DNA of 64,000 nt from Flaccisagitta enflata (taxonomy: Eukaryota). The first letter of the stretch is position 1. Each line of letters starts with the position of its first letter. The DNA lies in the NCBI GenBank assembly GCA_965153355.1, contig OZ231126.1:23374001-23438000 (forward strand), in the 5' to 3' direction. The translations under genes and the position numbers were made by a program. The notes under the pieces were generated by a model. It searched no databases and had not been told where the DNA came from. It worked only from the letters and a program-made list of their open reading frames with translations. Shown here one piece after another: positions 1 to 59,776 of the stretch.

Positions 1-241
1 ATGATTGTGCATCCTGGCAGCCCAGTCACTCTCTCATTTAAACTCTGGACTCTAGGAGAGGCATTGTCCGTCAGTCTATCCATTGGTCTGTTGGTCCGTC
101 TGTCCGTCCAAGTGGAAAAGTGGAAAAACAAGCAGTCTTGATGCTTGTGTGTGGGGGTTGGGGTTGGGGTGTGGATGGGGGTTGGATGCCTCTGTCCACC
201 TATCCGCAACAATATTGTAACCCCGGGTTACATGAGAGAAG

Positions 242-284
<43 letters not shown>

Positions 285-389
285 AGAGAGAAAATGAGAA
301 TGGGAGAGAGAAAGAGAGAGAAGAAAAAGAGAAAAAGAGACAGGCAAACAAACAAGGCCAACACCTATAAGTCGCGTGCGAGACTTACT

Positions 390-1310
390 TAATTACGTTA
401 TCGCCTAATTGTATAAGTACGTTATTTCCTGTAATCACGATAATGACTACAACTACCTATTGACCTATAATTGCCTATAATGACCTATAATTACCTATAA
501 TTACCTATAATTACCCATAATTAAATACTGACCTATAAGTACCTATAAAGACCTATGATTACCTATAATTACATATGGACCAATAATTACCTATAATGAC
601 CTATTATTACTCATAATTACCCATAATTACCCATAATAACATAATAACCTATAATTACCTATAATGACCTATGATTACCTATGATTACCTATAATTGCAT
701 AATGACCTATAATTACCTATAGTGACCTATGATTACCTTTAATGACCTTTGATTACCTATAATAATCCATAATTTCATAATGACCTATAATTACCTATAA
801 TTACCTTTAATGACCTATAATAACCTTTAATTACATAATGACCTATAATACTTATAATGATCTATAATAACCTTTAATTACCTATAATTATCTATAATTA
901 CATAATGACCTATAATTACCAATAATGACCTTTAATTGCATAATGACCTATAATGACCTATAGTTACGTATGATGACCTATGATTACCTATAATAACATA
1001 ATGACCTATGATTACTTATAATTACCTACAATGACCTATAATTACCTATAATTTCCTATATTTACCTATGATTATATACTGACCTATAATTACCCATAAT
1101 GACCTACAATTGCATGATAACCTATAATTACCCTTAATGACCTATAATTACCTATGATTACATAATGACCTATAATAACCTATAATGACCTATGATTACC
1201 TATAATGACCTATGATTACCTATAATTGCATAATGTCATATAATGACCTATGATTACCTATAATTACCCAAAATTGCATAATGACCTATAATTACCTATA
1301 ATTATGTAAA
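390..1310. repeat. 10-bp satellite (TGACCTATAA/TTACCTATAA)n
   Basis: Directly visible degenerate tandem array. Confidence 0.95.
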
Positions 1311-11113: not shown

Positions 11114-11835
11114 CCCCTCCCCTTTCCCGCTTTCATCCTTTGAGAGACCTAAAGAACAAGGCCGGATACACGGCCATCAGTTGCGGACAGGTGGGCAGGG
11201 ACGGAAATGCGCACTTTCACACTTTTCAACTTGATCGTTATGGACGGACCGATGGACCAACGGACGGATGGACGGACGGCCGGACAAAGCCTCTTATAGA
11301 GTTGTGTGTCCGCAACTAAAAACGGTAACTTTGGTCTATTCATGGTTGTTCTGGCGCTATTTTGGGCCATTTTAGATCATTTTTCTGGGCTGTCGTTGAT
11401 TCAAAAGGCCTGGACAGGGGCAACGGCACACTTGGGGTTCATCACCCAACTACTCCTATGCAATTATTGCACTTCCGACCCTAGTTAGGGCTCTAAGTAC
11501 GGTTTGAGGCCACAATGGTGAGATTTGATGGAGGAAAATGGTCAATTTCACGCAATAAACGCTATTTTTCCAAGCCGATTTTTTTGTTTTTGCGCTGAAT
11601 ATGTTGCAAATGTATTGGAAATGACATTCCACCAGGTCAGTGGTCTTGACAATTTTTTTTGACCCAGAGTTCGTTCCTGGACGCCGTGACACCCCAACTC
11701 CCACCTCTCACCTCCTACACACACAAAACGCTCCATTTCCCACTTTTCGACTCGATCATTATGGACCGACGGACCGACGGACCGATGGGCAGACGGACAA
11801 AGCCTCATATAGAGTTGCGTGTCCGCAACTAAAAA

Positions 11836-15925: not shown

Positions 15926-16850
15926 TGTTAGAAATGTACGTCTGTCCGTCTCTTAGGTGTGTGTGCCTTCTGTCTCTTTTGCGTGCTTTTGGCTTTTTCT
16001 CTTTCTCTACTATTCGATGCCCGTGTCTTTTGTTTCTTGCCATTTTTTATATTGGACGCTAGATGGGTAACCATATGGTTGCGCCTTGATTTTGTGCCAT
16101 TTGTTTTTACTACGTAGGCAAATATACGTAACTCGTCTTTCGTATCATCCAATTTTTGGATTGATTGATTTTATTTAATTACGGCATCGCTTCTTAGAGT
16201 GATTGATTGATTTTTATGATCGTTTGAATGCGCCCTTGGAATTCACTAATTTCAATAATCTCTCATCTTTTTATTGCAGATAAACTAATGAACGGACAAT
16301 TAACGTTAATTTGACATCGACAGACTGTGGGTTGAAACCAACGAAAGTGGGCCTAAAAGTAAGTTTTATAGACGTGTTTCTGCTTTTATTAACGTTGTTT
16401 TTATCTTGTCTTCCGGTCTGTTATTTTTGTCTTTTGCCCTTTTGCATTTTTATCGCCGGATTTTAGTATGGTTTTTATCGCTTGTCCGATCAGCTTGCTA
16501 TAGGGATGATATGGATGAATTTAATGGGATGGGCCGGGGCAGGGGCAGGTATTATCAGGTGGCATGGGCTCTGAAGAAGATGAACATGTTGTCATGTGCT
16601 GTTTCTGTCCTTTATTGTGTCCTATCTCGATTTCATGTTATCTTTTGCGTTTGCTGATCACAATTAACGCCCACTTTCCCTTTCATTTTTCCCCCTCTCT
16701 TCAGTTGTTGAAATTTTTTTATGGAATAAACGAGACGATCGCCTTCCTATTTTCCAATCGGCCAACTTTCTTTCACCACAAGTCGTCAGTCAGATAGACG
16801 CTCATAGACAGTGCCAGTTGAAACTCGTGGGCGTAATTTATATTTCAACA
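15926..16850 (+). repeat. 5' LTR (925 bp)
   Basis: TGTTAGAAAT...ATTTCAACA (TG..CA with imperfect terminal inverted repeat); AATAAA at 16725; repeated at 28189. Confidence 0.95.
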
Positions 16851-16905
16851 ATTTAAAAACGACTCGATTCTTTTCATCTTCGACCTCCGAAAGCGAAATT
16901 GGACA

Positions 16906-19900
16906 ATGGCAGCCGCGCGTAACGACGACACCGTCTCGACTGCTTCAACGTCATCTCGTGTATCTCACTTCGGTTTGAATCAGTGTCCGAGGTCGAATCG
17001 TTTGCGCGCAATGAGGAACGACATCACTGCGGAAATGGAAGGATGCCGGCGCCTTTTCGACGCCGTTTCTACTTGCACCGAAGGAACGAATGATTTCGAC
17101 GACGCCGCCTGTGAATCGGATGGCGCTCGACACGGCCTTCGGGACATGGTCTACGACTTTATATCGTATGCAAGACAAATGGCGCTCGACTCGATGCCCG
17201 GCGACCCTCTTCGATTCGCGGCGTCTTCTTTGCGTCGAATCCGGCGCGAATGGGACTCCATGCGTTTCTTTGATCGTGAAAACTATCCAGAGGGTTTTCC
17301 TTCCAACGCTGACATCGTGAACGCAGTGCACAATGACATTGGGAATCGCAAAAGACCCGTCAACGAATTCTCATGGAATAGTCTCCCAACTGACACCCAC
17401 GCCGCCCGTGACAATGTTACCGGCGCTCCGACTCCAAGGATGCGAACGTCTTCGCCAAACCCCGACGGATCCGAGTATCTACCACTTCCGGTCCCACGAC
17501 ATGGTGCGCAATCTCCAACTGGCGGCCAATTTTTAAATCTGCCGCCGATCCAAAGAGGAGATGCCGTCAATCAATGGGTATCAGATTTGGTCTCGGAAAT
17601 TGAACCTGCGCGTGCGTCTCCTATGGAGCAAGCTGACGACATGCTTGCGGATCTCGACGACGCCGACGCTCTCGCAAGAGGCCGCGGGATCATCAACGGA
17701 TTGACGCCGCAGGAGAGGGCGAGGCGACGCTTCGTCAACAGGAGTGCTGAGAGAGACAGATGGGGCAGGCAGTTGGAGAGGAAATGCGACAAGGCCGTCG
17801 GCTGATTGACGATATGCAGCAGCAACAACGGGAGGAGGAGCAGCGACAGCAGCAGGAGCAACAGCAGCAGCATCAATTGCAGATGCAGCAGCAGCAACTC
17901 CAACAGCAACGTCAACTCCACCGACCACAGGAGCAGCAGCAAACGACGGCTCAACGGCAGCAGCAAGAGCTGTTGCAGCAGCAGCAGTTGCAGCAACTCC
18001 AACAATTTTGTCAACAAGATCCTGCAGCCGGCGCTCATCATCAACAACAACACGATCAACAGCAGCAACAACAGCAACAGCAACAACAACAAGAGCTGCG
18101 ACAAACGGCAATGCAGCCGCACGAACAACAACAACAGCGGCAAAACGATGCAGGAGAAAGTACGCAACAGCAACAGCAGCAGCAACAGCAACCTCCCGCC
18201 GCAATCCCAGCGGTGGTGGTGGATCCTCCAGCTTCAAACAACCATCTTGTCGAAAGCATGAACGTCAGTGAGGAGACAGAAGAAGAGAGACAGCAACGCC
18301 TTGCAGATCAACGGCTGCGCATGATGGCTGAAGGTGAAGGTGGTGGTGCAGCAACAGCTCCAAAGGCGCCGATCGCGGTGCCATTGGGATTCCAACAGCG
18401 AAGCTCATCACAAGAAGACAAAGAGTTATACGACAGAATGTGTAACTTTCGCCAGCAGCAGCAACGAGATGAAGATAGAAGAGCGGGAATATTCAACAAT
18501 GCGGCAGAAATGCAACGAAAGCACTGGAATAGCCTGAACGACGGCGGCATTGGTGGGGCTTTAGAGCAGCGTGATGTGAAGCTTAGGCAACTGTCTGAGC
18601 TGGAACAGCAGCAGCCGCAGCATCCGCCAAAAGACCGTCGATCTATCTTCAGAAACTTCAATCCTTCAATTCGAACACACAGCAACGTCATGTGCAGTCA
18701 GTGGAAACGTCCGTCAAGCAGCCGATGCAGCAGCAGCAACAGTGGGAGCAGCAGCAGCAGCAAGGACAACGTCAGCGTCAACTGCAGCAGCAGAATGAAC
18801 AGCAACAGCGTCCTGACCAGCAGCAGCAGCTTCAACATCAACAGTGGCAGCAGCAACGGCTTCAACAACAGCAACAGCATCAAGATCAGCATCATCAAGC
18901 CCCAGCAGCAACGATTCTCCCTACCGCACCGGAAGTGATCTTCGAGAAGCAGATTGGCTCTGCTAGAAGGGAGACTGGTCTTCCCCATCAAGAGGAAAAG
19001 GTCTTCAACACAGCCGGAAGCGGAGGTGATGCAACGGAGGCGATGCGCAGGAGGCAGAAACAGGAGGCCGCTGACGCGAAGTTGGCACAACAGCTGCAAG
19101 ATAAAGAGAGAAGGAAAGTCGCTCCTAAGAAGACAACGAATGGATTGCAGCCGAAGGCGCCGAAAGTAGCGCAAGCGCCTCCAGTAACGCCTCAAGCGGA
19201 AGTCATCCAGCAGAATCAACGTTTGCAGCAAGAAGTGGATAGTTTGAAGATGCAGATTCAGCAGAGAGACTTTGACCTTGCCGCAGCGAGAGCGGAAGAA
19301 AAACAACGAAAAGAAGAACAACAACAGCGACAGTACGTCCGCCAAGACTTTGATGCTCCCCGATTCCATCAAGATGATCGTCAACAACAAGTGAATCAGC
19401 AAGAGGAAGTGGGGTGGAGCGTTAAAACCACCAAAAAGAGATCTCCGGTGAAAGTCGGGGGTCAATACGCCTTCGTCCAACAACCCCCAGCGTATCATCA
19501 AGTGGAGCATCATCAAGTAGCCCGTCAACCGGAAGTCCACGTTCAGATGCCCAACAATCCGGCTCTGGACAGGTTTTTGGAAAGAGCGACGTACAATGAT
19601 CTCATGCGAGCAAGGGAGGTCGGCCTCAAAGCGTTGGAGAGAGCAAGACCTGAGAAGCCTCTGCAGGAGCTTTCATCCACCGACTTTATGATGTGGAAGA
19701 GGAAGTTTAAAGATGCTGAGAAGCATGAAGGCTTGACGCAAATGGACATCTTATTGGAATTGCCTAAGTGGTTTGCTGGTCCGGCAAAAGAGATCATAGA
19801 AACTGCGACGATTGATGCAACTGAAGCGACAGCAAGAGGAGAGATTGACGACGCCTTCGCAAAAATGGACGTCGTCTTTATGGCAAGGCGCTGCAACATT

Positions 19901-20683
19901 GCGGCGCTGTTCAACGAAATCGTCGCGGAGGCAAAGATCCAGTCGGCCGACCATGCAAGGCATTTCAATTTGTCTGCAAGGTTGCAAAAGGCAAAGAAGA
20001 TTGCGAGGACCTGTGGAGAAGTGCAACAATGCTATCGTGACGAGCTGCTGCAGGAGATTCTCAACAAGAGGGTCCCTCATCTTGCAGATAAATTCTGGGA
20101 AAAGCAACATGAAGCAGCCCTAAATGGACAATTGTTTTCATTCGACAACTTGGTCAATATGATCGAGACATGGGCGGTGATTCAGCGCAACAAAGGCGCA
20201 AGCTGCAAAACAGCATCAGTGGCAGCAGTCGCAACTACAGAGAAAGAAGCGCCATCATCATATGAAGATGCTTTGACCAATGGCAAGCAAAAGACGCAGT
20301 CGACGGACCGCTGCAACGTCTGCAGTGGAATGCATCAAACGGAAAACTGTCATCAACTATTAGAGTTGGAAGTGGACGCGAGAGTTCAAAAGATCATGTC
20401 TCGCCGTCTTTGCTTCCACTGTCTCACGCCAGGACACAACGCCAAAGAATGCGTGAACAGACCGACTTGCCAAACCTGCAAGAAGCGGCACGCGATTCTC
20501 CACGGGCGCACCTACAAGAAAGAAGAAAAGGAAGAGAAGAAAGGAGAAAACAAGCAGGGAAATAAAGTACCGCTGGCTCCCTTCAAAAAGTCAGAGGATG
20601 CGGCTGCAGCAGCACCAACAGCTCCGTCGACGACGGAGGCAGCCAATCCAACGGAAATCATCTCTCCTAACGCCACGGCATGA
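16906..20683 (+). CDS. gag: gag (glutamine-rich, ~1250 codons across two frameshifts near 17800 and 18680)
   Basis: ORFs 16906-17805, 17760-~18690 and 18692-20683; BEL-type knuckles CNVCSGMHQTENC, CFHCLTPGHNAKEC, CQTCKKRH; long polyQ tracts. Confidence 0.85.
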
Positions 20684-23600
20684 CTGGCGGCGACGGCAAC
20701 GTCGCGGTCCGTCTCTTCATTCGACGACGTTGTCCGTCCGATCGTTCCAGTGACTATATTAAACAATTCTTCGGGTGCGCAGAGGACGATATATGCTATG
20801 ATCGACTCAGGCGCTGATCGCGACGTGATCAGTACCAGCCATTCGCAGTCTTCTGATTCCAACAAAACAGTGCAAATGACGGTGATTACTGTGGGAAGTC
20901 ATGCTGTTGAGGATCGTTTCATCGCATCATTCACCATGCAATCGGTCGACGAGGAATACGCCGCCGACATCAGCGACGCATTGGTGGGTGATTTGTTAAC
21001 GAGTGAACGCGATATTCCTCCTTTTCTCCGCGACCTATCTGACCAACCTCACATCGAAGGCATAAAATTTCCAGAAGCTGAAGGCGGTGTGATGATGATC
21101 ATCGGAGCGGCGCATGCGGATGCCGCTGTCGCTCAAGAAATCCGCGAGGGCCTTCAGGATCTTTGACTTGCTTTAGATGTCTATTCGGTTGGACTGTATG
21201 TGGAAAAACGGGCAAAAGAGGACGAGATATTGCATCGATCAACGCTATCGCGACGGATGACCGCGTCCTCAACGATAATATCGATCGCATCCTCGACAAT
21301 CGCGTCCTCAACAGCAACATCGACCGCATCTTCTACCATGACTTTGCATCATCAATCGTCTCGCAAGAGGAGATGGGTGATTCTCGAAAATGTCAGAGCG
21401 TGCAAAACGTTAGAGGAAAAATATATTTTTGCCCAATTGTGAAAAAGTACTTTGCTCCCGTCACATGGAAATTTCATCATGAAAAAATCATGGAGATTCT
21501 GAGAAGAGTCAAATCACGACCGACTGCGATGAAGCGACTCGGCAACCAACGTTTTCGCTTCAAGCGTGATCCAGCCTTCAAAGAAAGAGTCTTCCGTGAA
21601 ATCGAGAAGTTTTACGAGACGGGAGTGGCGATTGAGATTGACAACGTCGATTTACGACGACGGCATTGAGAAGTCGCGCTGGTACTTGCCGCTTCATATT
21701 GTCGAATTGCGCGGAAAAACGCGCGTATGTCACGATGCGCGTGCGGCGACCGACGGGATCTCACTCAATGATTTGCTCGTCGGAGGCCCAAATTTGATGA
21801 ATAGCCTGATGGACATCCTCATGTGTTGTCAGTGGAAAATCGCCTTTATGTGTGACATAAAGGCGTTTTCCACCAAATCCGCGTCCATCCTGACGACGCT
21901 GATTTATTCAGATTCTTTTGGTTCAAAGATCGCACTCTTCGAAGCAATTTTGAATCTGTTTTTCACACGTCTTCGGCAGCCAATCCAGCTCATTCGTCAC
22001 ATCTTTCACCGTCAGAAAGCATGCTGAAGTAATCCGGCCCAAATACCCCTACAACGTCTACGATCTTATTCGCTATGGCTTTTACGTCGACGACGGAAGT
22101 GGGGGTGGGGATTCGGTCGACGAAGCACTGCAACTAAAGGTGGATTCAGTGGCGGCGATGGCGGAAGGCGGGATGGACCTTGTGAAGTGGAAGAGCAATG
22201 CGCGGCAATTGATGGATGGAGATCCAAATGTGCCAATCCCCATTTCAGATAAGCAAGATGATGCGCCGACGAAGGTGTTGGGCGTCTCATGGCTTCCGGC
22301 GGAAGACGTCTTTATTTTCATCTGCGACGAAGAATTCAAAACTCTTAGAGCAAAACACCTCGTCAATTGGTCTCTATGCAAGCGAAACTTTACGATCCAT
22401 TGGGCTTTTGGAGTCCAAGCGCATACATCGGCAGACGTCATCTTCAACTCTGTCGTCCACAGGAAGTGGGATGGGATTCGCCCTGGAAGAGAGCGTCGAG
22501 GAATCTTCTTCCGCTATACTTTCATCTTGGCCTCTTCTACAACAATATCGAATTGAACGCTGGTGGAATGGCGGCGTCGACAATAGCGACATTGCGGAAG
22601 TAACAATCGAGTTATTTTGCGATGCAGCTCCAAAAGGCGGATATGGAGCAGTTGCATATCGACGTCAAGTCAACCGAGATGGAGATGTTCACATTTCATT
22701 CATCGCCTCCAAATCTCACGTCATTCCTCTCAATCCAAAACGTGCCTCTCATCACAACAGCGTTCCACGCGTCGAGATTGTATCCGCAGAAAAGCAGTGC
22801 AGCTCAAACGCTTCGTCGGAAGGACCATCAACTTGGACAATCTCGTCGCCAGATTTTGGTCCGATTCTGAATCTGCACTGAAGATGATTTATAATCCGGC
22901 AAAACCGAGGCCTGTATTCTTCGCCAATCGTCTCTCCAAGATCCATAGTGGGTCTGATCCTCAACAGTGGCGCTGGGTTGACTCACAAACAACCCGGCGG
23001 ATCACTGTAGCAGAGGCATCCAGGCCCATGAAGCCGAAAAATGGCGTCAATTCCATCAAGGCCCTGCATTTTTGCCTTTCCCAAGATCAATGGCCAAAGA
23101 CGAACATCGCGACGTGCCCTATTTCTGCACAGGTCGCCGCTCTGTATGCGGCTGAGAGTGAAAAGAAACAAGTGGCTGACGCGATACTTCTGCAGCCGCT
23201 TCTCGGGGAAAATGGATGCAGAAATTGCGGATTATCGGCATGGTTCTCATCGCAGGAAAAGGTGGAGAGCCTATCCAAGGGCGAAGACACGAGCAACAAA
23301 AGATCTCCTTCCAAAACCGGAAGTGACGCAAGACGTCGTGGAGGAGGCGCGCAAACAGCTCGTCAAGTCAATGCAGCGGCAGCATTATTCTGACGTCTTC
23401 GAACAATTGAATTGGGAAAGTTTTCAAGCCAGAAAGCCGTCGTGACTTCATCATAAAGAACAAGGAGATGCGGAAACTGAACCCTTTCGTCGACGACGAC
23501 GGCATCCTTCGCGTCGGCAGTCGATTGCAAAATGCCGACATCTCTCACGACGCTAAATTTCCCTTTATCCTGCCGCCAAAAGACGAGAATGTGAAATCAT

Positions 23601-24703
23601 TAATTCGCCATTATCATCATAATGATTTTCACGCGGGTGCAAAGCATACATTGTGCCAATTACGCCAATTTGTGTGGATTACAAAAGGTCTTCAGGCCGT
23701 CAAGAGCGTCGTCAACACGTGCTTTAGATGCCAGAAGAACTTAAAAAGAACGCAAATCAGCAAATGGCCAATCTTCCATCAAATCGCGTCAATCCGGCGC
23801 CTGTCTTTGCAGAGACTGGATTGGACGTCATGGGGCATTTCATGGTAAAAATGAACGGGCGTGCTGATCACAAGGTGTGGATCGCAGTGTTCACCTGTTT
23901 CGTGTCACGCGCCGTCCATGTGGAATTGCTCTTCAACATGTCAGCCGATGCGATGGTAAATGCAATCATCCGCTTTGCAGCAAGGCGCCCAGGAATCCGC
24001 CGTTTCACATCAGATTGTGGGACGAATCTAGTCGGCGCCAACAACATCCTCAAGAAGGAAATGGAAGCTTGGAACCGCTCGTCAACTCCTGAACTGCAGC
24101 GGCGCGGCCTTCGGTGGGATTTTATCACGCCGAGAACACCCCACTATGGAGGGGTGTGAGAATCGTTGTTCTTTAAGCGCCATCTTGCTTCCATCTCAAC
24201 TGGCGCCATCCTCCACGCCGACGCCTTCAACACTGCCGTCGTCGAAGGAAGGAATTCTCAATCGTCGTCCTCTACAGCGCTCAGCGGATGATCCAAATGA
24301 CTCTGAGGCCCTTACACCGAATCATATCCTCAATCCATCAACATCCGGCCATGCCCCTCTAGATCTGGTGCAACAAGGCGTCAATTCTGACGCCGACTCC
24401 GCGAAGATTCAATGGAGGCGTGCGCAATCGCGTGTGGATGCATTTTGGAAATCGTGGAGGGTCGAATATTTGTCGCTTCTTCATGCGCGAAGCAAATGGT
24501 CGAGATCTGAGAAAGACTTTGCGGTGGATGACATGGTCATCGTCATGGACGAAACGCTGCCTCGTCACAATTGGAGCTTAGGACGTGTCATGGGCGTCGA
24601 GGGTTCGTCAGCCCATGTCCGGAGGGCTCACATCCGGCGCCAAGATGGAAAGATCGTGACGAAAGACCGCACGAAGCTCGTGCGGCTGGAATTGGACTCA
24701 TAA
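20684..24703 (+). pseudogene. pol: pol (aspartic protease, RT, RNase H, integrase, C-terminal DUF5641-like domain), multiply frameshifted
   Basis: YAMIDSGAD (PR); VCHDARA, GPNLMNSL, CDIKAF, FYVDD ~22083 (RT); FCDAAPKGGYGAVAY, WSDSE (RH); LNPFVDDDGILRVGSRL, FTCFVSRAVHVEL, SDCGTNLVGA, PHYGG (IN); WRRAQSRVDAFWKSWRVEYL. Confidence 0.92.
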
Positions 24704-25054
24704 AAAACGCTAAGTTTTGAGAGAGAGAGAAAAAGGCGCATGGGCCTGTCCATTAGTAACTATAGATATGAGTGATTGATACTCTGACTTGTTATATTTA
24801 CAAAGAGTTGTTATTATTCATATTTGGTTCTGATTATCCATGCTTTCATCTTTCCTCTTGTCAATTATGTTGTCCATTTCCATTTACACATCAAAACACT
24901 GATTCATTCGCCCTGTCTATATGTACATATTATTGTGCCAAATCCGTTCTTACCTTTATCAGTTCTTCAACACGAACATTTCAAAGCTTCCGCTGACGAC
25001 GTCATTCCATCTACGAAGTCAGTTTGCATCTTGAAGTCGCTCGTCGGAGTCAAG

Positions 25055-27154
25055 ATGTCCCGTCAGCAGCGTCTCGAGGCTGAAGCCGACGTGTCGACGT
25101 CGTACGGGTCCTTGGATCTTCATCGACTCTTCAACGACGGCTCGACTCGAGAGGGATCTGCATCCACGACGTCGTTCGGGGCGGAGGAGGAGGCTGTCGC
25201 GCTGGCAGCCTTCAATGGCGACCTTCGTTCCGTCGTCGACGCAAAAATGGCGAATAAAAAGCGTCAACAAGATGATGCGTTGGTAAATCGTCAACAGCCA
25301 TCCAACGCCGTTGATCCCGCGTCGCTTCCTCCATTGGTGGTCATCAAAGATGGAGGTTCGAGGCGGATTGCGATCAATCGGCCGCCGACGGACTTATCCA
25401 CCACTTCCGCGGCGGCGTCATCATCATCGGATTTGCCCCCATCGCCTCGCCAATTCTGCCTTGATTTCGGTCGCCCAGCGTCTCGTGATCAAGCGTCTGC
25501 AGCTGCACGTCAACGCAGCGGGGGCGAAGAGAGAGAGAGATTGGTCAATGATGGAGCAAGAGTGGAGGAGGAGGGGATGGAAATAGAGGAGGAGGTGTTG
25601 GTGAATGGGGAGGTGGTGGAGAAAGGCATTGACCCGGAAGTGGACACTGCGACGCCGGAAGAGAAACACCAACGGATGCAGGCGCGTTGGTGGTATCGTA
25701 TCATCAGTCCGGACGTCGAAGTATCTCTCCTCTTCAAAGAGTTTGAAAAACTTTCAGTATGCTGCAACAAACAAACTCTCATGCGCTCATCGGCTAATCA
25801 AACAGAGCTGGGCTCGGAGACTCTGGAGCGCAAAATCCAAAGCAATAAGAGAAGGAGGGAGCATGATAAGGAGGTTCGTCGCATGGTCCAGGCGACGAAG
25901 AGGAAGAATGCGGCTCCGAAGCCTCCTGGTGCAACTTCCGTCGACGCTTCCGCAACTCCACCAGCGGTATTCGTGCTCGACGCAGCCGCAGCTACATCAG
26001 CGGCAATTCACTCTACAGCATCAGGAAGTCGTCAATCGCGCCTCGGATTGGTTCATCCCCCAAATCAGCAGCAACAGGGTCCTCGTGACGTCACTCCCTC
26101 ACAACAAGTCGAAGAGATCACGTCGGGGAAAGACTCACAACGCGCAACAAAGGAAATAAACCAAAGGGGCCAGAACCAAAGCAAAGGCCTCTCTCAAGCG
26201 CCCCTCTCCAGTGGCGCCGCCTTCTGGCAGCAGTAACGCCCAAAGGCCAAAGGAGAGTCACGGTTCGCTTCACGGCACCACAGCAACCCAGAAGCTGGAT
26301 CAGGCGCCTGGGGCAGCGGCAGCAAAAGGGAAGAAGACCAAGAGAGCTGGGAAGAAGCACAAAGCAGCAACCATGGGAGGTTCTACTTGCGGCGCTTCGG
26401 CGTCCGCTAAACCTCAAGTCTCTGGTCAGCAGACGGGAGCGTCTTTTCACTCCGCAGCCACTGGGGTCATGTAGGAAGCGAACTAGTTACGTGTGTGCTT
26501 CACATCTGCTGTGCTGTGTAGCGCCTCGTCAGCAGACCTAAGCCTGCCCAAGGTCTGCAGCAAGTGCAGAACCCGCCTCCCCCGTCGGATCCAGCCTTTG
26601 ATCCTGCGCATGGACACCACATCGCCGAGTCATTGCTACGAGAAGCCTCTTCACTGACCTCAAATGCTCCATTGGGGGTGGTGAAGAATTTAGCATCAAG
26701 GCTTCCAAAAGACTTCTTCGCGTCGCTTCCGCCGCGTCAACGAGTTGAAGCGGCTCGTCAAGTCTTAGACGAGAGGATTCGTCGCAATATCCAAAAGGAG
26801 AGAGACGATGCTCGTCGAGCAGCAATGGCTGCGGACAATGAGGTGGTCAAAGGCAATAAGCGAGTCGTGGAACTGGAGAAGCAGCTTGAAAAGGAGAAGC
26901 AGGCCTGTGCGATGAAGGCTAAGAAGAAAGAGGAAGCGGTGGAACGCGCAAAGGCGGCTATGGCCGTCGACTTTAAAACCGCGTCCGCTGTACGTCCAAA
27001 ATTTCGACTGGCGCCGAATTGCGATGCAGCATCTCCACCTCCTGCGTCTTCTCCAGCAGAAAAGTCGGTCAGCAGATCCCGTCGCAAAAAGACGCTCCCA
27101 AGCCTGGGAATAAGAAAAATCGAACCAGGCCTGGAAAAATTGACCGCCAGCTAA
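25055..27154 (+). CDS. Accessory ORF3 of unknown function (disordered plus coiled-coil, not env-like), probably spliced or frameshifted
   Basis: ORFs 24824-26236 (first ATG in the GC-rich part at 25055), 26211-26474 and 26564-27154 on the gag-pol strand with coding-like GC; preceded by pyrimidine tract plus AG at 24961-24962. Confidence 0.6.
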
Positions 27155-28173
27155 ACGCTGATTGGCCATGCCCAGTTGAGGTTCAATTTAACTAAATTTG
27201 CAACATGGCGTGGAGAGCGCCGCCATTCGCTGAGGATCGTATTCCACCGTAGCATCCTCATCCCATCGATGGACAGGCCGGCCAAGTCGGGGGCGCTACC
27301 CGGGGCGTGGGAATGACGTCCGCCCCGGGGCCTGGCGAAAAACGCCCGCGTAAGTTTCATGGTTTAGGAAGGGTTGAAGTTGAGTTTTGTTGTAAATTTG
27401 AATCTGTGTACGATAAGAACTTTACTAATCAATCTGCCCCTGTTCTTCTTTCTTTTCCTTCCCTTCGGGGAGGATTCACTCTCAGACGGCTGCACCACCT
27501 GCGCCTTTCGATGCGGTCATGCTGACCCACATCACTCATCGCCGCCCACGAAAGGACGAGGTGTTGGAGCTGAATGACCCGCTCGTCTCTGTAATGGAGA
27601 AGGCGCAGGTGATGTGGTCGTTCCATGATGCTTACTAATTTTTTTCTTTCATTTAACAGATTCGTTTTTATTATATAGTTAGTAATTTATTTAATTTTGT
27701 CTTGTTTTGTTTGGTTCTTTGGAACATGTACATTTTTGTTGTGTTTGTTTTAGACATGGTCTTTTTAGTCATTATTACGAATACTTTCGTATGACATGTT
27801 TTAGTAGTATGCCCCCACTTATCTTTTTCCACTCTCAAGTCAAATCCCAGGCTTGGAGTGCGCCTAGGCCCGTTCCCCTTTCCCCCCCCCTTCCCTTTAA
27901 CTTTTTTCAGAACGGGCGCCTCAACCTCCTCGTCGCCGCCTCGTCTCCATCCGCGTCGTCATGATCGTTGCAAATTGCTGGTGGTGGATCCTTTCCCGAC
28001 GCGGGAATCATCATTCGCAGTCGCTGATCTGTTGATAGTTAGGGGATGTAAGAGGCGGACGGGGAGGGGCGGGCCAGGTTCTGGTGTCTTTTTTTAAGGG
28101 AAGCAGAGATCGGTTTTTAGTAGGTTTCCCGCACTGGAAACTAGTGTCGGATTTTTGAAATTCGTGAAATTCC

Positions 28174-28188
28174 AAAAATGGGGCAGAA
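28174..28188 (+). promoter_or_regulatory. Polypurine tract
   Basis: AAAAATGGGGCAGAA immediately before the 3' LTR TGT. Confidence 0.8.
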
Positions 28189-29109
28189 TGTTAGAAATGT
28201 ACGTCTGTCCGTCTCTTAGGTGTGTGTGCCTTCTGTCTCTTTTGCGTGCTTTTGGCTTTTTCTCTTTCTCTACTATTCGATGCCCGTGTCTTTTGTTTCT
28301 TGTTCTTGCCATTTTTTATATTGAACGCTAGATGGGTAACCATATGGTTGCGCCTTGATTTTGTGCCATTTGTTTTTACTACGTAGGCAAATATACGTAA
28401 CTCGTCTTTCGTATCATCCAATTTTTGGATTGATTGATTTTATTTAATTACGGCATCGCTTCTTAGAGTGATTGATTGATTTTTATGATCGTTTGAATGC
28501 GCCCTTGGAATTCACTAATTTCAATAATCTCTCATCTTTTATTGCAGATAAACTAATGAACGGACAATTAACGTTAATTTGACATCGACAGACTGTGGGT
28601 TGAAACCAACGGAAGTGGGCCTAAAAGTAAGTTTTTATAGACGCGTCTTGGTTTTAATAACGTTGTTTTTATCTTGTCCGGTCTGTTATTTTTGCCTTTT
28701 GCCCTTTGCATTTTTATCGCCGGATTTTAGTATGATAGTTTTATCATTGCCCGATCAGTTTGCTATAGGGATGATATGGATGGATGAATTTAATGGGATG
28801 GGCCGGGGCAGGGGCAGGTATTATCAGGTGGCATGGGCTCTGAAGAAGATGAACATGTTGTCATGTGCTGTTTCTGTCCTTTATTGTGTCCTATCTCGAT
28901 TTCATGTTATCTTTTGCGTTTGCTGATCACAATTAACGCCCACTTTCCCTTTCATTTTTCCCCCTCTCTTCAGTTGTTGAAATTTTTATGGAATAAACGA
29001 GACGATCGCCTTCCTATTTTCCAATCGGCCAACTTTCTTTCACCACAAGTCGTCAGTCAGATAGACGCTCATAGACAGTGCCAGTTGAAACTCGTGGGCG
29101 TAATTTATA
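28189..29109 (+). repeat. 3' LTR (terminal 8 bp missing)
   Basis: Matches the 5' LTR up to GCGTAATTTATA; lacks the final TTTCAACA. Confidence 0.95.
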
Positions 29110-47748: not shown

Positions 47749-49130
47749 TATAGCTTCCCTTCCGACAATTTTTAAGTCGCGGACACGCGACTCTAGAACT
47801 TGCCGTGTCGATCAGTCAGTCCGTTTGTCGGTAACTTCTTCAAAGTATGAGCAGTTTTTTCTCTGCACTGCCTCTGCCTACCCATCTGCAATTGAGGGAG
47901 TGAACACGGTTTTTCAAAATTTGCATGCAAAGGTAAAACGAAGCACGCGACTGTTGGCCTGTTGGCGTTGGCCTAGTTTCTGTTTATGTAACGATATCAG
48001 AATTGAAACTGGCTCTTAAACAAAGAATCTTGTTGTTCTTCACCCGTAGTTGTCATTATGTCTTTCTCGAGGCTTCAGAAAAAAATGACATTCTAAATCA
48101 ATAAGGTTTTCATATAGATTTCAGTAGCTGACCAATCCCTCGATCCATTCGTCCGTCTGTACATCGGTAAGTCCGTTACGCCTGTTCAAAAGCAAGCCTA
48201 AGTTATGGCCAATAAGTGGACCTCGCTGGTTAACAAAGGAAAAGAACAAGTTACAATTTTCCTGAAGCGTTTTAAGTCGCGTGCTACGCGACTCTACACC
48301 CCGCTAGGTCGGTCCGTTGGTCGGTAGGTCGGTCCCCTTTTTACTTTTTCGCCATTTTTGAACTTTTTGAGCCTTCTGCTCCTGCCCAAATGCTCTAGTG
48401 ACCTTCTCAAGTACTGCTCTTTCCCATCCACACGCGACTGGGGTAGCCGTGCATGCGGCCTTGTTTTATGAATAAATGAATGACTGAATGAAAAAAAATT
48501 GGTTAGGCATGAGAGGTAACAGGAACGAAGAAAGACATCGGAAATGTCCGATTCGCTCGGTCTCAATGTTTGCTTGAGGGACCGACCAACCGACCAACCA
48601 ACCAACCAACGGACCGATGACCTTACAATATCGTTGCGGACCGGTGGGCAGGGGCATCCAACGACCATCTGCACGCCAATCCTCACCCTACACAAAAACA
48701 TAGATAAAAAGTATCTATAACGCTCGTTTTTCCACTTTTCGACTCGATCACCACGGATCAACAGACCAACGGACGGACGGAGGGACGGATGAACGGACGG
48801 ACGGACAAAACCGCTTATAGAGATGCGTGTCCGCAACTAAAAAGAGCAATGATCGAGGCAAGGAAGCTGACTTTTATGGCCTTCTCAATCATACTTGGGC
48901 GACTTTTGTACCTTTTGGTCCGCCTGTTTTGAACTGAGACTGACTTTTACGACCACAGAAAGGGGCAAACGTTCGTTCAATTACCTCTGTTATCTAGAAT
49001 CAGTCAAAATCATTTCAGCTTTAGAGTTCTCTTACTCTCAGGCATGTCTGACTCTCTTTTAACTTTCGTATAACGAGTAAAATACGGATACGAATGTACG
49101 AATAACCAACTATTTCGGACAATTACCCGT

Positions 49131-59379: not shown

Positions 59380-59776
59380 AACAAGGCCAACACCTATAAG
59401 TCGCGTGCGAGACTTACAGACAAAGAGTGACTTAGAATGACTTAGAATGACTTTCAATGACTTAGAATGACCTAAAATGACCAAAATTGACTTAAAATGA
59501 CTAAAAAAACAAAAAACCAAAAATAACTTAAAATAACTTAAAATGACTTAAAATGACTTAAAATGACTTAGACTGACTCAAAATGACTTAGAATAACTAT
59601 AAATGACTTAAAATGACTTAAAATGACCTAAGAGTTGACGTTATAGTACAAAAAAGTAAAGTGTGACGGACTGACGGACGGACGGACGGACCGACGGACG
59701 GATGGACCGACGGACGGACCGACGGACGGACGGACCGACAAAGCGGGTTATAGAGTCGCGTGCACGCGACTAAAAA
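59380..59776 (+). mobile_element. HINE family A copy with short (AATGACTTA) array
   Basis: Same head as 351, 10-bp array, (GACG)n, AGTCGCGTGCACGCGACTAAAAA. Confidence 0.78.

Follow-up and report, generated by a model that had tools for sequence, protein, structure and literature searches.

A 64,000-nt stretch of the Flaccisagitta enflata genome (NCBI GenBank assembly GCA_965153355.1, contig OZ231126.1, positions 23,374,001 to 23,438,000 of the forward strand), here called the window and numbered from its first letter, carries a retrotransposon in which the gag gene is closed by a TGA codon placed directly ahead of the protease. From its sequence, the locus (15926-29109) is a long terminal repeat (LTR) element of the BEL/Pao superfamily (Belpaoviridae) in a marine animal host, and all of its features lie on the forward strand. 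The gag gene (16906..20683) opens with an ATG at 16906, runs through a long glutamine-rich middle into a zinc-knuckle region (20312..20503) and closes with the TGA at 20681..20683. There follow 38 codons (20684..20797) for the N-terminal part of the protease and then the remainder of pol (20798..24703), with the DSG of the protease at 20804-20812, reverse transcriptase/RNase H, integrase, a DUF5641 domain and a TAA at 24701-24703. The flanking LTRs are direct repeats spaced ~12.27 kb apart. The 5' LTR (15926..16842, 917 nt) begins TGTTAG, the 3' LTR (28189..29109, 921 nt) has a purine-rich tract just upstream, and the two differ by ~15 substitutions and 9 length differences as counted by eye in their alignment.

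The assignment to BEL/Pao draws on this layout. Two LTRs surround a coding interior in which a Pao-type protease, reverse transcriptase/RNase H and integrase follow in that order, and a Gag with Cys/His knuckles stands upstream of a DSG retropepsin, with a profile that matches retroviral proteases across RPIV...DSGAD. Pfam finds, in order along pol, Peptidase_A17 (3.7e-12), Integrase_H2C2 (3.4e-10) and DUF5641 (6.4e-20), together with a weak match to rve (1.2e-5, under the curated cut-off). The pol region is collinear with P0003, an intact relative of 1312 residues. On the gag side, the start codon and N-terminal peptide are similar to those of P0017, and the zinc-knuckle motifs, a CX2CX4HX4C at 20411-20452 with one Cys/His motif on each side, are kept in P0002 and in the distant, fused P0008. 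At ~1250 codons the gag is unusually long, and its glutamine-rich, low-complexity middle (17750-18900) is also present in P0002 and P0006.

The copy in the window is dead. Mapping by tblastn of P0002, P0006 and P0051 shows at least two frame switches in gag (frame 1, then frame 3 by ~18108 and frame 2 by ~18668), and ungapped tblastn of P0003 shows 16 in pol, from ~20839 to ~24247. In a copy broken so many times, the TGA by itself could have been one more lesion. These multiple breaks had been missed in a prior examination of the letters (the sequence-only reading), which described the protease as continuing in the frame of gag with no other stop. The shared frame was correct. The continuation needs qualifying, as the frame of the window copy is open only to 21166, and two frame switches within it, near 20839 and 20866, compensate each other.

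At the junction the sequence is GCA TGA CTG. The sequence-only reading had placed a TGA followed by C (20684; UGA-CUG) between the knuckles and the protease, and this is what is found. The stretches 18599..20683 (694 residues, with the zinc knuckles at its end) and 20684..21166 (160 residues, with the DSG) form one reading frame, in which one stop alone divides gag from pol without a change of frame, both in the window and in the second DNA copy described below. The 38 codons after the stop have no AUG; the first in the pol frame is at 20798, two codons ahead of the DSG, and the near-cognate start codons upstream of RPIV are CUG at 20684 and ACG at 20693 and 20699. The RPIV motif (20735-20746), whose R lies 17 codons from the TGA, is kept in relatives for which only pol is known. 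In a profile of the N-termini of these pol-only relatives, compared with solved structures, it aligns to RPLV, residues 10-13 of the mature protease of Rous sarcoma virus/avian myeloblastosis virus (E 0.007-0.03), the same profile giving E 0.34 against the protease of human T-cell leukemia virus type 1. The protease would therefore begin at most about nine residues past the stop, and a protein begun at the first AUG, two codons before the DSG, would be made without the N-terminal strand of the protease.

A metagenome scan recovered one other locus of the family, L001 (1165 nt), and scans of viral and prokaryote genomes yielded no further DNA copies. L001 differs from the window by 48 mismatches in 1104 aligned nt and has the same GCA TGA CTG; the end of its gag (3..620) shares a frame with the start of its protease (621 onward). 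Over 20660-20742 the two copies have no mismatch at all. The ratio of non-synonymous to synonymous rates (dN/dS) between them is ~0.2 overall, which implies that much of their divergence arose under selection, in lineages that already had the stop; the block after the stop holds three synonymous changes and one non-synonymous change in the gag frame.

Further copies were sought by piling reads and contigs of four public runs on 20200-21300, at a likeness of at least 85% and with a threshold of 5% for the share of a variant. A DNA run of the host (X1) contributed 3603 aligned contig pieces, the marine metagenome X3 contributed 51 and the metatranscriptome X16 another 18. Among the 41 variants listed for these three runs, none lies at the stop or anywhere in 20660-20757, the nearest being at 20657, 20659, 20758 and 20759, and none changes the length between 20534 and 20837. 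The contigs of the metatranscriptome are continuous over 20609-20790, with no joint. The sequence-only reading had named a sense codon at 20681 in other copies as the observation that would speak against it, and as far as these data reach no such codon was found. At three sites in pol (near 20839, 20863 and 21144), the extra bases of other copies are missing from roughly one half to two thirds of the depth in X1. These shared length differences, in an element whose gag switches frame twice and whose pol does so 16 times, suggest that a pol-defective subfamily has multiplied. Parts of the window were also found in marine metagenome and metatranscriptome runs X3-X20 from ten studies, and word depth in the host run is very high; the family appears to be abundant and widespread in marine plankton samples.

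The predicted proteins of close relatives stop and start at this junction. Three gag fragments (P0051, P0201 and P0203) all terminate at the aligned residue, and in the P0051 cluster three of the four members end at the residue before it, the fourth running into adapter-like sequence. On the pol side, MIDSGADRDV, which begins with the first Met after the stop, is the start of nine of the 15 listed members of the P0003 cluster (87% identical in the protease); seven of these are distinct intact open reading frames (ORFs) of 1312 residues on contigs of 6-11 kb, and none reaches further upstream. In the P0054 cluster, five of six members begin in the same way. Among families further removed (57-63% identity), all 15 listed members of the P0002 gag cluster end at one place. 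Eight listed members of the P0004 pol cluster start in the protease region, with MSSFDDVVRPIV (three), MTIFAMIDSG (three) or MIDSG (two), and the other seven listed start further downstream. No close fused gag-pol form was found by an exhaustive phmmer search, nor by searches restricted to 799-2280 and 1459-4165 residues, these last being weak evidence.

The same division extends to a wider group. Local phmmer was used to classify the 150 best representatives at 50% identity, which comprise 70 gag-only forms ending near the junction, 43 pol-only forms starting there, 16 spanning forms and 21 uninformative fragments. For 11 of the 16 spanning forms the best matched stretch itself crosses the junction, in every case at no more than 37% identity; distant fused relatives, P0008, P0129 and P0157 among them, cross it in one frame. 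The pol-only forms start either 2-15 residues before RP[IVL][VAI] (28 of 43) or later, at M(I/L)D(S/T)G (15), and none starts further upstream. Given these limits and the 17 codons of the window, the pol frame would be closed at about the same place throughout the group. In a protease tree of 43 split forms, the window protease included, and 12 fused forms, the split/fused label needs only one change, and 0 of 500 shuffles were as low (shuffled mean 11), in a tree that was made by a quick method from 157 columns, with rows picked by likeness to the query and a support of 53 for the split/fused branch. It was built without four spanning proteins that fall short of query position 400 and one pol-only protein that ends before query position 410. 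The split forms are set apart by branch lengths that reach more than one change per site. With respect to the residue before the stop, 33 of the 70 gag-only representatives (P0055-P0193) end in Leu or Ile, several of them in NPTI, and the family of the window ends Thr-Ala. This residue therefore seems to be conserved across the group, perhaps as part of a site cleaved by the protease or as 5' context for the stop.

Since L001, the variants in the runs, the gag ends and pol starts of relatives and the protease tree, in which the split forms take one side, all agree, the TGA is, on the comparative evidence, a genuine conserved in-frame gag terminator of this BEL/Pao family and not a private mutation of a decayed copy. 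How Pol is then made is a separate matter. With the RPIV strand lying between the stop and the first AUG, and everything in one frame, readthrough is the most economical route, and we think it moderately probable that the UGA is bypassed in this manner. The N-terminal strand of the protease, which is needed for function and lies downstream of the stop, has no AUG of its own, and the stop appears to be kept in intact relatives, judging by the ends and starts of their predicted proteins. Most ribosomes would stop at the UGA and release Gag. A few would instead accept a near-cognate tRNA there and go on to translate protease, reverse transcriptase and integrase, so that a Gag-Pol fusion is produced in a low, fixed proportion, as gammaretroviruses do. 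At a UGA that is read through, the residue inserted is Trp, Cys or Arg. UGA-C is the leakiest stop context, and this context and a predicted stem-loop that starts 3-8 nt downstream might boost the efficiency of the process. Two other ways past the stop were considered and rejected. An intron that removed it would take the conserved DDxxRPIV peptide with it, and contigs of the metatranscriptome run through 20609-20790 without a break. Frameshifting is unneeded with gag and pol in one frame.

The RNA immediately 3' of the stop is predicted to form a stem-loop (20687..20745) that overlaps the codons for the N-terminal strand of the protease. Its core pairs 20692-20704 with 20725-20738, and its loop is at 20708-20720. 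The sequence-only reading had described the core as a 13-bp stem with one bulged base and one G-U pair; the stem and the bulge are there, and all 13 pairs are Watson-Crick. In the minimum free energy fold the long helix is lengthened to 20687-20745 and so begins 3 nt past the stop. The other structure proposed in that reading, a 6-bp hairpin with a GCAA loop at 20690..20705, does exist in the sequence and overlaps the long stem (-9.7 kcal/mol alone). In context, however, its pair probability is 0.036, and that of the long stem is 0.86-0.96 (about 0.95), which gives no thermodynamic support to a competition between two conformations. Of the proposed recoding signal that would set the Gag to Gag-Pol ratio, the conserved in-frame stop is supported and the two conformations are not.

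Within the element, the 62 nt after the stop are matched in stability by 43 of 3734 overlapping windows of that size (top 1.2%), and by 4 of 198 at similar G+C. The stem shows no variation between the window and L001, nor among the variants listed for the pile. A 667-nt contig of X16, from a family like that of P0004, matches the window only at 20677-20745, with 8 mismatches, no gaps and flanks that are unlike, and X3 has loose ends that match this contig. The matched stretch may be a hint, as it corresponds to the stop plus the stem; it also corresponds to the conserved peptide SSFDDVVRPIV. A pseudoknot of the H-type, as found in Moloney murine leukemia virus (MoMLV), was also considered and rejected: the best pairing of the loop with downstream sequence reaches -10.0 kcal/mol, which 27% of shuffles equal, and no family is found by Rfam. 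From its position and moderate stability, we think it less likely than not that the stem-loop raises the efficiency of readthrough, and an effect of the C after the UGA is suggested only.

Several observations weigh against readthrough, or limit how far the data can speak for it. L001 has a premature stop of its own within the protease (L001:621-1007), which makes both of the readable DNA copies defective, and no intact full-length gag ORF (~1250 residues) of the exact family was found, the longest being P0006 with 805 residues. Intact relatives are known as predicted proteins, from which their stop codon and frame are deduced. X1 may be the source of the window itself, and the 41 variants on which the statements above are made leave 26 others beyond them. 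The fourth run, X22, is polyA RNA of the host organism; with ~6% of it read, 0 reads aligned, which is no test either way. The run of 83 nt without mismatch around the stop, between the window and L001, has P ~0.10 and is not significant. As for the fold, the long helix predicted after the stop is no more stable than dinucleotide shuffles would lead one to expect. A 100-nt fold gives -31.0 against -29.65 +/- 3.14 (z -0.43, 68 of 200 shuffles as good), a 62-nt fold -25.8 against -21.95 +/- 3.05 (z -1.26, 22 of 200), and the part from 13 nt past the stop, which would be left folded under a paused ribosome, has z -0.70 (49 of 200). The pairing into a pseudoknot is likewise at the level of shuffles, and an Rfam scan of 20400-21000 gave a chance-level match only, with no selenocysteine insertion sequence (SECIS) or other family. 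The start of 28 of the 43 pol-only ORFs with an M soon after the stop could hint at reinitiation. Lastly, a UGA followed by a 3' pseudoknot in Tca2 of Candida albicans gave no readthrough in a reporter (PMC2194720).

Tca2 is also a precedent for a different account, in which the stop is just as real and conserved and Pol is expressed by termination-reinitiation, by a non-AUG start at one of the three near-cognate codons (CUG 20684, ACG 20693 or ACG 20699), from an internal promoter or subgenomic RNA, or from an internal ribosome entry site. There the gag-UGA-pol junction with its pseudoknot did not direct readthrough and a minor promoter lies in the junction (PMC2194720). The statistically ordinary stem-loop and the called starts 2-15 residues before RPIV in 28 of the 43 pol-only relatives also speak for such a route. 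At least some of these called Mets, however, are alternative start codons that gene callers read as Met, since P0098 starts with M at a place inside the conserved strand where its relative P0148 has V. In the P0004 cluster, an upstream start is present in three of the eight listed protease-region starters and absent from five, intact ORFs of 1305 residues included. In the family of the window, none of the 38 codons that follow the stop is an AUG, L001 has no mismatch over 20660-20742, and the metatranscriptome contigs pass unbroken over 20609-20790. General retrovirology adds that Pol made without fusion to Gag has no Gag tether for packaging, a handicap that Pol expressed alone would carry. 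A route of this kind seems unlikely to us.

Alternatively, the stop could be an inherited defect, conserved by descent, in a non-autonomous lineage that lost the fusion of Gag to Pol and is copied in trans by other elements. In favor of this, the window copy and L001 are both defective, the presence of some frame-breaking length differences of the window in roughly one half to two thirds of the depth in X1 implies that defective subfamilies multiplied, and an intact full-length gag of the family was not found. Yet seven distinct ORFs of 1312 residues are intact downstream of the stop, the dN/dS of ~0.2 between the window and L001 points to selection, and the split is found in 43 representative clusters at 50% identity, on branches of up to more than one change per site, and the tree asks for just one change of state. 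Over that depth a mere defect would hardly be kept beside an intact pol, and we regard this as quite improbable. A nonsense mutation private to the window copy, in which one more lesion beside at least 18 frame switches would be unremarkable, has next to no probability when the same codon is present in L001, when no variant at it is listed for three runs and when related gag ORFs terminate at that very residue. Just as little can be given to UGA as an ordinary residue, read as selenocysteine or under a reassigned host code, for which there is nothing beyond the in-frame UGA itself; ORFs predicted with the standard code (874 residues of gag, 1305-1329 of pol) meet the junction with no other in-frame UGA, Rfam finds no SECIS in 20400-21000, and we know of no reassignment of UGA in an animal nuclear genome.

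Other parts of the window bear less directly on the junction. Between the TAA of pol and the 3' LTR there are ~3.4 kb with ORFs of 482 residues (24788-26236) and 210 residues (26522-27154), neither of which has a match in Pfam; the element may have a third gene here (24788-27154). More widely scattered is a short interspersed repeat; with its palindromic conserved core and (GACC/GACG)n tails, it occurs at more than 10 sites on both strands of the window (for example 1799-1878, 11243-11322, 48764-48843 and 59697-59776), and the window is also rich in long GA, GTCC and other microsatellites.

A known case of readthrough at a gag terminator is MoMLV, in which the gag stop is the fifth codon of the protease and the spacer and pseudoknot encode the N-terminal fold of that enzyme (PMC13517186). 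The arrangement proposed here is similar to MoMLV, with its UAG, 8-nt spacer and H-type pseudoknot, in having one frame and one stop at the very start of the protease, and in that the RNA just 3' of the stop also codes for the protease's N-terminal fold (PMC13517186). It differs in having UGA-C in place of UAG-G and a simple predicted stem-loop in place of a pseudoknot, in belonging to another reverse-transcribing family and in being known from sequence alone. Readthrough of the alphavirus type is described by Firth et al. (2011, PMC3159437) as using a UGA followed by C and an extended 3' stem-loop. The element resembles this type in its UGA-C and in a sizeable stem-loop a few bases downstream (PMC3159437). 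The hallmark of the alphavirus type is raised synonymous-site conservation with phylogenetic support for the stem, whereas the stem of the element is known from a predicted fold (PMC3159437). Tca2, of the Ty1/copia group, is likewise an LTR retrotransposon; its gag and pol are separated by an in-frame UGA that has a predicted structure nearby, but its superfamily is a different one and its host belongs to a different kingdom. Its negative reporter result cautions that such a UGA beside a structure does not always imply readthrough.

Within its own superfamily the element differs from typical members. BEL/Pao elements are generally described as having one or two ORFs (PMC3118150), and Atlas virus of hookworm has a single polyprotein of 2828 residues without stop codons (PMC9094657). 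The element shares with typical BEL/Pao members, such as Atlas virus, the superfamily and the order of domains. Unlike the single ORF of Atlas virus, however, the element and 43 related representative clusters have separate gag and pol ORFs. Full-text searches of the literature, some of which probed the name of the superfamily, turned up no account of a gag-pol stop codon being read through in BEL/Pao. Gao et al. (2003, RNA 9:1422), who surveyed gag-pol recoding across LTR retrotransposons in the principal study of the subject, may bear on this novelty; the abstract reportedly does not mention BEL/Pao readthrough. What is proposed here would be retrovirus-style readthrough in a superfamily that normally has a fused ORF, and it would characterize an entire group and not one copy.

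How the ratio of Gag to Gag-Pol is set in retroelements is a classic problem, and the usual description of BEL/Pao elements has them make a single fused polyprotein. Somewhat short of an even chance, in our estimate, is the broader picture in which an ancient, varied branch of the Belpaoviridae that is abundant in marine animals abandoned the fused Gag-Pol usual in the superfamily and independently reached the gammaretrovirus solution: a leaky in-frame UGA at the boundary of Gag and protease, often after a Leu or Ile codon that is conserved, with RNA behind it that serves both to encode the first strand of the protease and to stimulate readthrough. If this is true, retrovirus-style readthrough would have arisen convergently in invertebrates, in a large group of BEL/Pao elements, and that group would offer many natural sequence variants with which to dissect UGA-C readthrough signals. 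It would also correct the annotation of such elements, which pipelines now treat as broken or whose pol they call from an internal Met, thereby losing part of the protease.

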